From: Clostridia bacterium
GTDB lineage: Bacteria; Bacillota; Clostridia; TANB77; CAG-508
Length of the DNA stretch: 64,000 nucleotides
NCBI GenBank assembly: GCA_017936925.1
Contig: JAGBEP010000027.1
Span: forward strand, 34,673 to 98,672
Reading direction: 5' to 3'
Part shown: positions 16,322 to 16,531 of the stretch, piece by piece
How positions within the stretch are numbered: the first letter of the stretch is position 1
How the letters are laid out: each line of letters begins with the position of its first letter
The notes under the pieces: generated by a model
What the model was told of the DNA's origin: nothing
What the model saw: only the letters and a program-made list of their open reading frames with translations
The model's database searches: none
Program-made: the position numbers and the translations under genes

Positions 16322-16347
16322 TTATTTAACCTCCTTAAATTTTGAAT

Positions 16348-16379
16348 AAAAAAAATACTAGAAGTAAATTCTAGTATTT
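16348..16379 (-). terminator. Attenuator-like terminator immediately upstream of the uraA-upp RBS
   Basis: Minus strand AAATACTAGAA-tttac-TTCTAGTATTT followed by T5, about 15 nt upstream of AGGAGG. Confidence 0.75.
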
Positions 16380-16487
16380 AAAATATTCATAAATATAAAA
16401 TAAAAAAGAAATGATAGAAATAAGAAATAATGCTCTTGTAGCTATTTTTGTTTTGTTTGCAGTTGGTACATTTCTTAAATTCTTCAT
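16371..16487 (-). CDS. 38-aa leader peptide or small membrane peptide MKNLRNVPTANKTKIATRALFLISIISFLFYIYEYFKY
   Basis: Not in the ORF track. Has an AGGGTG SD-like sequence and a promoter upstream. The TAG stop lies in the 5' arm of the terminator. Confidence 0.55.
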   Translation of the reverse strand: MKNLRNVPTANKTKIATRALFLISIISFLFYIYEYFKY

Positions 16488-16502
16488 TTTTACACCCTGC
16501 TT

Positions 16503-16531
16503 ATCATATTATAATTTTATAAATATTGCAA
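16503..16531 (-). promoter_or_regulatory. Sigma-A promoter for the leader/uraA-upp
   Basis: Minus strand TTGCAA-17 nt-TATGAT. Confidence 0.6.

Follow-up and report, generated by a model that had tools for sequence, protein, structure and literature searches.

What controls a uracil salvage gene that is preceded by a promoter, a short open reading frame (ORF) and a terminator hairpin, and is the short ORF a gene of its own or a part of the switch? This question is raised by a stretch of DNA of 64,000 nucleotides, the whole of which is called the window here. By textbook, pyrimidine control in Gram-positive bacteria is exerted through PyrR, and leader-peptide attenuation of transcription is regarded as essentially proteobacterial or actinobacterial; one reason offered is that polymerases of the Bacillus subtilis type outrun the ribosomes. 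In a survey of 2010, leader-peptide systems were then known essentially from Proteobacteria and Actinobacteria, and a His leader in bacilli was a novelty (PMC2965389). No description of a uraA or upp leader of the kind analyzed here was found in the full-text literature searched or in Rfam, and the arrangement appears to be undescribed as a leader-attenuator.

The features of the locus are listed in Table 1. The preliminary description of this DNA had listed on the minus strand a promoter, a 38-codon ORF with a U-rich second half and a UAG stop, an 11-bp terminator whose 5' arm takes in this stop, a U-tract and a ribosome binding site (RBS), and each of these elements was recovered at the positions it gave. 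The 'uraA-upp' that it placed downstream is present in both functions, but as one fused ORF of 666 aa and not as two genes.

Table 1. Positions of the leader elements and of the gene downstream of them, in window coordinates
Feature	Position	Strand	Details
Sigma-70-type promoter	16503..16531	-	-35 TTGCAA 16531-16526, 17-nt spacer, -10 TATGAT 16508-16503; 9/12 consensus matches
Shine-Dalgarno (SD) GGGUG (DNA GGGTG)	16493..16497	-	5 nt past the -10 box, 5 nt ahead of the ATG
Leader ORF	16371..16487	-	38 codons + TAG, MKNLRNVPTANKTKIATRALFLISIISFLFYIYEYFKY; also called by the gene caller in the ENA assembly
U-rich tract	16391..16430	-	40 nt: 29 U, 4 C, 7 A, 0 G
Putative intrinsic terminator (attenuator) hairpin	16353..16379	-	Perfect 11 bp, -9.3 kcal/mol; 5' arm AAAUACUAGAA 16379-16369, loop UUUAC, 3' arm UUCUAGUAUUU
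Terminator T8 run	16348..16355	-	First three T shared with the stem
RBS of uraA-upp (AAGGAGG)	16330..16336	-	uraA-upp ATG at 16321
Fused uraA-upp	14321..16321	-	666 aa; Xan_ur_permease residues 22-398, UPRTase residues 464-665; same gene call in the ENA contig

The element is compact, about 190 nt in all, with a predicted 5' UTR of only ~10-14 nt. The first half of the leader ORF (16487-16431) is A-rich and 68% purine. The T content of the U-rich tract that follows is exceptional, as at least 29 T was reached by just 0.01% of the 51,438 coding 40-nt windows of the 64-kb stretch. Five TTNTTT motifs are located on the non-template strand of this tract, although the counts of the motif, in the tract as in the leaders of relatives, are not above the expectation from T content. 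Given its composition, the ORF had a chance of about 9% of staying open, and its TAG stop (16373-16371) is situated within the 5' arm of the terminator. From the end of the stem there are ~16 nt to the RBS of uraA-upp and 34 nt to the ATG. The hairpin was overlooked by a generic terminator scan because it contains just two G-C pairs; the whole leader folds with z = -1.8, and besides the terminator only weak A-U pairing was predicted. Candidate internal promoters, from which transcription would bypass the hairpin, scored 7-9/12 against 8-11/12 for the upstream promoter and none of them is conserved, but consensus scoring is not discriminating in DNA of 28% GC.

The fusion of permease and uracil phosphoribosyltransferase (666-734 aa, with a hydrophilic linker of ~60 residues) was observed only in the window and its closest relatives, L002, L003 and L004, and elsewhere the uraA and upp functions are encoded by adjacent separate genes. 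Such a fusion would directly link uptake with phosphoribosylation. On the other side of the leader promoter, between it and pyrH, there is a divergent gene for a small membrane protein without Pfam match (16639-17079, plus strand; 111 aa in the ENA assembly), and the end of a homologous small-membrane-protein gene was seen at the same place in L003.

One genome per species was scanned for relatives, which yielded 80 uraA loci. The same order of parts (promoter, SD, ORF, terminator and RBS) was identified ahead of uraA/upp in 26 of the 80, and the carriers are uncultured low-GC gut metagenome-assembled genomes (MAGs) with UraA identities of 58-81%; since these loci are phylogenetically related, counts over the 26 overstate their independence. 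Most of the 26 related leaders have a promoter of the form TTGnnn-17-TAnnnT at the corresponding place, and an SD ((G)GGTG, GAGGTG or other) is located 5-9 nt ahead of an ATG or GTG start in all 26. The ORF is likewise open in every one of them, over 26-44 codons, where the median probability of an open frame given the composition is ~0.04 each. Four gene arrangements were recorded under the leader, namely the fused uraA-upp (window and L002-L004), uraA followed by upp, uraA alone, and upp first (L027). A metagenome pattern scan with GGGTGYAARAAAATGA returned 120 loci, mostly random, among which were three further real leaders on metagenome contigs, all ahead of uraA and one of them from human gut; no association with genes other than uraA was detected in these 120 loci. 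In public runs, the leader sequence occurred only in DNA-like contigs of low depth and uncertain kind, which came from ruminant, pig and human gut samples.

A strict scan for the architecture (SD, ORF of 20-50 codons, T-richness and stop at a terminator) was carried out on both strands of the window and the 80 loci, ~1.7 Mb in total. It gave 22 matches, each immediately 5' of uraA, and the architecture was absent outside the uraA context in these ~1.7 Mb. A small ORF of L037 that passed the scan was not counted as a member, since its terminator is followed by ~90 nt that include promoter-like sequence. Two other observations were made at these loci. The uraA ORF of L010 (4001-4636) is broken, to 211 aa, by an assembly error or as a pseudogene, with the leader intact. 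GC-rich palindromic inserts (GTAGGGGCGATT...AATCGCC), which resemble small mobile repeat elements, are present in AT-rich spacers of L016 (~3870-3990) and also 5' of uraA in L007 and L023.

What is conserved in the leaders is the nucleotide sequence and not the peptide. In an alignment of the leader peptides Met1 is the sole invariant residue and the mean column identity is 26%, and a profile search that started from 26 leader peptides found nothing at E <= 0.01 among 5.8 billion proteins. The preliminary description had raised conservation of the peptide away from pyrimidine genes as something that would speak against attenuation; no such peptide family was detectable by this search. Between the window and L002, by comparison, the 3' part of the leader together with the terminator is 89% identical and is the best-conserved DNA of the region, against 57% for the 5' half of the leader and 62% for the third codon positions of uraA. 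Within this conserved part, an indel of 1 nt changes the frame, so that the peptide ends in ...YIYEYFKY in the window and in ...YILNILSTRICF in L002, and shifts the stop from a TAG in the 5' arm to a TAG in the 3' arm. Altogether three independent frame-shifting indels were found in the conserved tract (window/L002, L005/L035 and L006/L171), and the ORF still ends at the hairpin in each case. The U-richness and the stop-at-stem position are kept among the relatives and the peptide sequence is not, in line with the pattern that the preliminary description had proposed to look for.

The composition of the tract was further compared with that of real membrane proteins from the same loci. In the last 15 codons of 26 leaders, T makes up 46/61/59% of codon positions 1/2/3, compared with 22/62/37% in 259 genuine UraA transmembrane windows; hydrophobicity therefore does not account for the U-richness, because position 2 is equal and U is enriched at positions 1 and 3. 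Phe accounts for 21% of residues in the leader ends against 5.6% in the UraA transmembrane windows, and Ala plus Gly for 2% against 24%. Mean hydropathy is 1.44 in the leaders, which contain almost no Ala, Gly or Val, against 2.47 in real transmembrane segments. The last 45 nt of the leader ORFs are 54-57% T and ~15% G+C, at a median T percentile of 0.09% relative to coding windows of the same loci, and two or three leaders (L005, L027) are without marked T-richness. No shared sequence motif beyond composition was found across the leader family. Given that the frame is open in every leader and that the tract is conserved as nucleotides, translation as such and a U-rich RNA or DNA appear to be selected, and the amino acid sequence does not. 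A small hairpin at the junction of the A-rich and U-rich parts was predicted in many leaders (z < -1.64 in 10/26, weak in the window), and in one subgroup it has the form GCAAA...UUUGC with one compensatory change from A-U to G-C (L013). This possible mid-leader pause hairpin was given no weight here, as its signal in the window is weak and exceeds that of shuffles only moderately.

[quoted passage not shown] Its first base was located between -7 and +24 from the stem start in 26/26 leaders, whereas only 34% of 92 ordinary genes with terminators from the same loci fall within these limits. Fourteen of the 26 leaders have it at -1, -2 or 0, and in L171 it is at -11. A hairpin with a T-run is present in all leaders, at -6.1 to -15.8 kcal/mol, and the median leader terminator (-10.7 kcal/mol) is comparable with the median of ordinary gene-end terminators of the same loci (-11.6 kcal/mol). 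Many loci have just 17-35 nt from the end of the terminator to the downstream start codon. The upstream leader did not pair with the 5' arm of the terminator any better than composition-matched shuffles did (mean z +0.40, with 0/26 below -1.64); no RNA antiterminator is therefore present, and the ribosome is left as the only evident means of preventing termination. In Escherichia coli, the ribosome almost completely represses a terminator that stands a few nt past a stop codon; full activity is reached only beyond ~27-30 nt, and the repression disappears once translation is removed (PMC4824070). On these grounds of sequence and geometry, the leader is probably a translation-dependent transcription attenuator.

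A more complete model, which we regard as more likely than not, would make it an attenuator of the pyrBI/pyrE type, in which the ribosome acts as antiterminator and the speed of the polymerase on the U tract acts as UTP sensor; here UTP as the signal, the pausing and the dependence on translation are inferred from the sequence. Transcription is predicted to begin ~10-14 nt ahead of the leader ATG, and because the start is so near, ribosomes would load immediately on the A-rich, unstructured first half. Right before the terminator, the polymerase would have to make ~45 nt of RNA that is 55-70% U. With plentiful UTP it would cross this tract fast and outrun the ribosome, the hairpin would form, and transcription would stop before uraA-upp. 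With scarce UTP it would slow or pause in the tract, to which NusG-type TTNTTT motifs on the T-rich non-template strand may add. The ribosome would then catch up, translate to the stop at or inside the hairpin and cover the 5' arm, so that no hairpin forms, and read-through into the gene for the uracil permease and UPRTase would restore UMP and UTP. In B. subtilis, TTNTTT in a T-rich non-template strand is a NusG-dependent pause signal, and the pause buys time for translation of the tlrB leader (PMC11602163).

The 'Clostridia' label of the window is doubtful; the nearest cultured relatives of its UraA are from Streptococcus, Erysipelotrichaceae and Mycoplasmatota, and close MAGs are labelled inconsistently as Clostridium, Clostridia, Bacilli and Tenericutes. 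The sense strands of the 35 ORFs of 200 aa or more in the window are 56.9% purine, a value that is high for minus-strand genes too, and the leader tail with 33% purine is a sharp exception to this gene-wide bias. In Bacillota, such a purine bias has been explained by 'runaway' transcription under the surveillance of Rho and is typical of lineages of this kind (2026 study, PMC13323073); for B. subtilis a lower value, 54%, is reported. The composition suggests a host lineage in which the polymerase would normally outrun the ribosomes, and with a purine bias of 56.9% and the polymerase normally ahead, an attenuator would need substantial slowing of the polymerase. We tentatively propose, as a possibility of somewhat less than even weight, a UTP-gated switch by which a Bacillota lineage would pass from uncoupled ('runaway') transcription to transcription that is coupled with translation. 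The polymerase would outrun the ribosome by default and terminate, and only slowing on the U tract under UTP limitation, possibly amplified by pausing of the NusG type at TTNTTT, would allow the ribosome to catch up and act as antiterminator. A pyrG-like reiteration of G at the conserved GGGU start is a less likely add-on to this switch.

Several other readings were weighed against the UTP-sensing attenuator. Translation-dependent attenuation might answer to a different signal, such as how readily ribosomes in general are available or coupled (growth rate) or how well the U-rich codons are served by Phe-, Ile-, Tyr- or Leu-tRNA, or might serve as a constitutive damper that keeps expression low. 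The anatomy would be identical in these cases, Phe takes up the noted share of the last 15 codons, and stochastic ribosome-polymerase coupling by itself tunes termination near stops (PMC4824070). We nevertheless consider a non-UTP signal unlikely, as stalling at hungry codons would, with no alternative hairpin, raise termination, which is illogical for a uracil transporter; the element is moreover restricted to uraA/upp, and the enrichment of U at synonymous and first codon positions, with nucleotides kept through frameshifts, points to RNA or DNA and not to particular codons. A separate gene that encodes a small membrane peptide (for example an accessory subunit of a transporter, or a type I toxin) and ends in a terminator of its own, next to a uraA with its own promoter, is much harder to reconcile with the data. 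Its single invariant residue and undetectable protein family, the three frameshifts that swap the C-terminus while the nucleotides stay conserved, the composition unlike that of real transmembrane segments, the leader of L027 that precedes the cytoplasmic Upp, and the short distance from terminator to downstream start in many loci all argue against it, even though the predicted peptide of the window is basic at the N-terminus and hydrophobic over its C-terminal half, its ORF was called by a gene caller, and promoter-like hexamers are findable in the AT-rich leader. The preliminary description had kept this reading as an alternative only; it is contradicted by the frame-shifting indels and by the excess of U at codon positions 1 and 3, not 2, and we hold it to be very improbable.

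The U-rich tract could instead be the binding site of a trans-acting factor (a pyrimidine-responsive RNA-binding protein, Hfq or Rho), with translation merely modulating access to it. This would fit a tract that is conserved as nucleotides and low in purine against 57% in the genes of the genome, and T-richness is one of the two features of Rho targets in B. subtilis. Rho targets, however, need more than 150 nt and the tract has ~45 nt (PMC13323073), an intrinsic terminator is already there, the family has no motif beyond composition, and it would be left unexplained why the stop is so strictly confined to the hairpin, which makes the reading quite improbable. Reiterative transcription as in pyrG, where extra G is added at a GGGU start under low UTP and the poly-G serves as antiterminator or as an aid to ribosome loading, draws on the GGGTG that begins 5-8 nt past the -10 box, at the expected start site and with U as the next base, in ~15/27 leaders. 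The other leaders, with GAGGTG, GGTG, GGAG and the like, retain the SD and not the G-run, and the 5' arms of the terminators are purine/A-rich and not C/U-rich, which leaves no target for poly-G; this explanation seems to us hardly probable at all.

If the UTP-gated switch is real, it would mark the first case outside Proteobacteria of a natural leader-peptide attenuator that senses an NTP, and direct evidence that the proximity of ribosome and polymerase is used for regulation in lineages of runaway transcription. A family of ribosome-dependent attenuators that probably sense UTP, conserved in uncultured low-GC gut Bacillota, would mean that the pyrBI/pyrE solution arose once more on its own, and would show how pausing can re-establish coupling in lineages that lack it by default. 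The element would also provide a compact, protein-free sensor of the UTP pool, and would add a cis-regulatory class that pipelines now annotate as 'hypothetical 38-aa protein'.

Among known systems, some classes were rejected for this leader. An amino-acid leader attenuator of the trp/his/phe type would need an alternative pairing that was not found, and although Phe codons are frequent, the downstream genes are those of pyrimidine salvage. A pyrG-type attenuator was set aside on its partial GGG and the purine-rich 5' arms, and a riboswitch for want of an Rfam match and of a conserved structured aptamer. PyrR attenuators (RF00515) occupy the same position, in the 5' leader of uraA/pyrP and with a terminator, but they need a PyrR-binding stem-loop and antiterminator/anti-antiterminator structures, none of which is present here, and the PyrR type has no translated leader. 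Rfam searches gave no match to a PyrR site in 13500-19000 of the window at E <= 10, and no family of any kind at the leader, whether around the site at this permissive E-value or at gathering score in the window and 28 loci; the 14 leader-bearing loci had no Rfam match at the leader and no PyrR site. The preliminary description had seen no consensus of the PyrR-binding loop, and its reading holds, with no RF00515 match in the window or in these 14 loci while the positive control L041 was found. PyrR-type leaders do precede distant uraA orthologues, namely those of Mycoplasmatota (L041, at Rfam gathering score), Erysipelotrichaceae (L040, with PyrR-box-like CCAGAGAGG) and streptococci. At other distant loci, the Erysipelotrichaceae L034, L036 and L038 have, at ~3890-3990, a promoter followed immediately by a terminator, with no leader ORF and no PyrR site at gathering score, which may be another type of attenuator. 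In L046 (3855-3958) the match to the Streptococcus family 'SpF44 sRNA' of Rfam falls on the 5' leader of pyrP/uraA, and this sRNA is probably a terminated attenuator transcript rather than an independent sRNA.

The upp-uraA genes of E. coli are the same genes, and UTP is sensed there directly by RNA polymerase; as reportedly described by Cheng, Dylla and Turnbough in 2001 (listed in PMC6524683), they are under UTP-sensitive reiterative transcription. That control, unlike the one proposed here, works on initiation, through a long T tract where transcription begins, with neither leader ORF nor terminator. The tlrB and vmlR leaders of B. subtilis share a Bacillota host and a T-rich non-template pause that lets the ribosome translate a short leader deciding downstream expression (PMC11602163, PMC9226507). 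They differ in that antibiotics are sensed by ribosome stalling and alternative RNA structures, whereas here no such structures were found and the proposed signal is the nucleotide pool.

The closest likeness is with the two pyrimidine attenuators of E. coli. In pyrBI, promoter, SD, short ORF (pyrL), U-rich stretch, T8 terminator and structural gene follow in the same order, and pyrL used as a control has 16/40 T against a mean of 8.6 in pyrB, about a twofold enrichment over the neighbour gene, as in the leaders here. Coupling in pyrBI is set by pausing (PMC4824070), and reiterative transcription at AAUUUG is used in addition (PMC6524683). Different from the present leaders, pyrL passes the whole hairpin, with its stop 25 nt beyond it (+44 from the stem start) and not at or in the hairpin, and transcription and translation are coupled by default in E. 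coli. The earlier label 'pyrBI-like' remains apt for the order of parts and the U-rich leader. In geometry the leader is closer to pyrE, whose stop is placed at the hairpin base, than to pyrBI, whose ORF extends across the hairpin. In rph-pyrE a translated ORF also ends at the foot of an intrinsic terminator ahead of a pyrimidine gene, with no RNA antiterminator; in the E. coli control, the rph stop in the wild-type frame was 8 nt before the stem of the pyrE attenuator, and that of rph-1 in MG1655 was 37 nt before it. The pyrE hairpin, in the account that Turnbough and Switzer are said to have given in 2008, is blocked by a closely following ribosome when low UTP slows the polymerase. The leader of E. 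coli is a full-length rph gene and here a dedicated ORF of 26-44 codons with its own promoter, in another phylum, without sequence similarity and with a far longer U-rich tract, and de novo synthesis is regulated there where salvage and uptake genes are concerned here. As a BLASTP comparison with E. coli PyrL gave no alignment and no Rfam leader family was matched, the leader would be an analogue and not a homologue of the pyrBI and pyrE attenuators, one that carries every sequence-level feature by which the class is defined.
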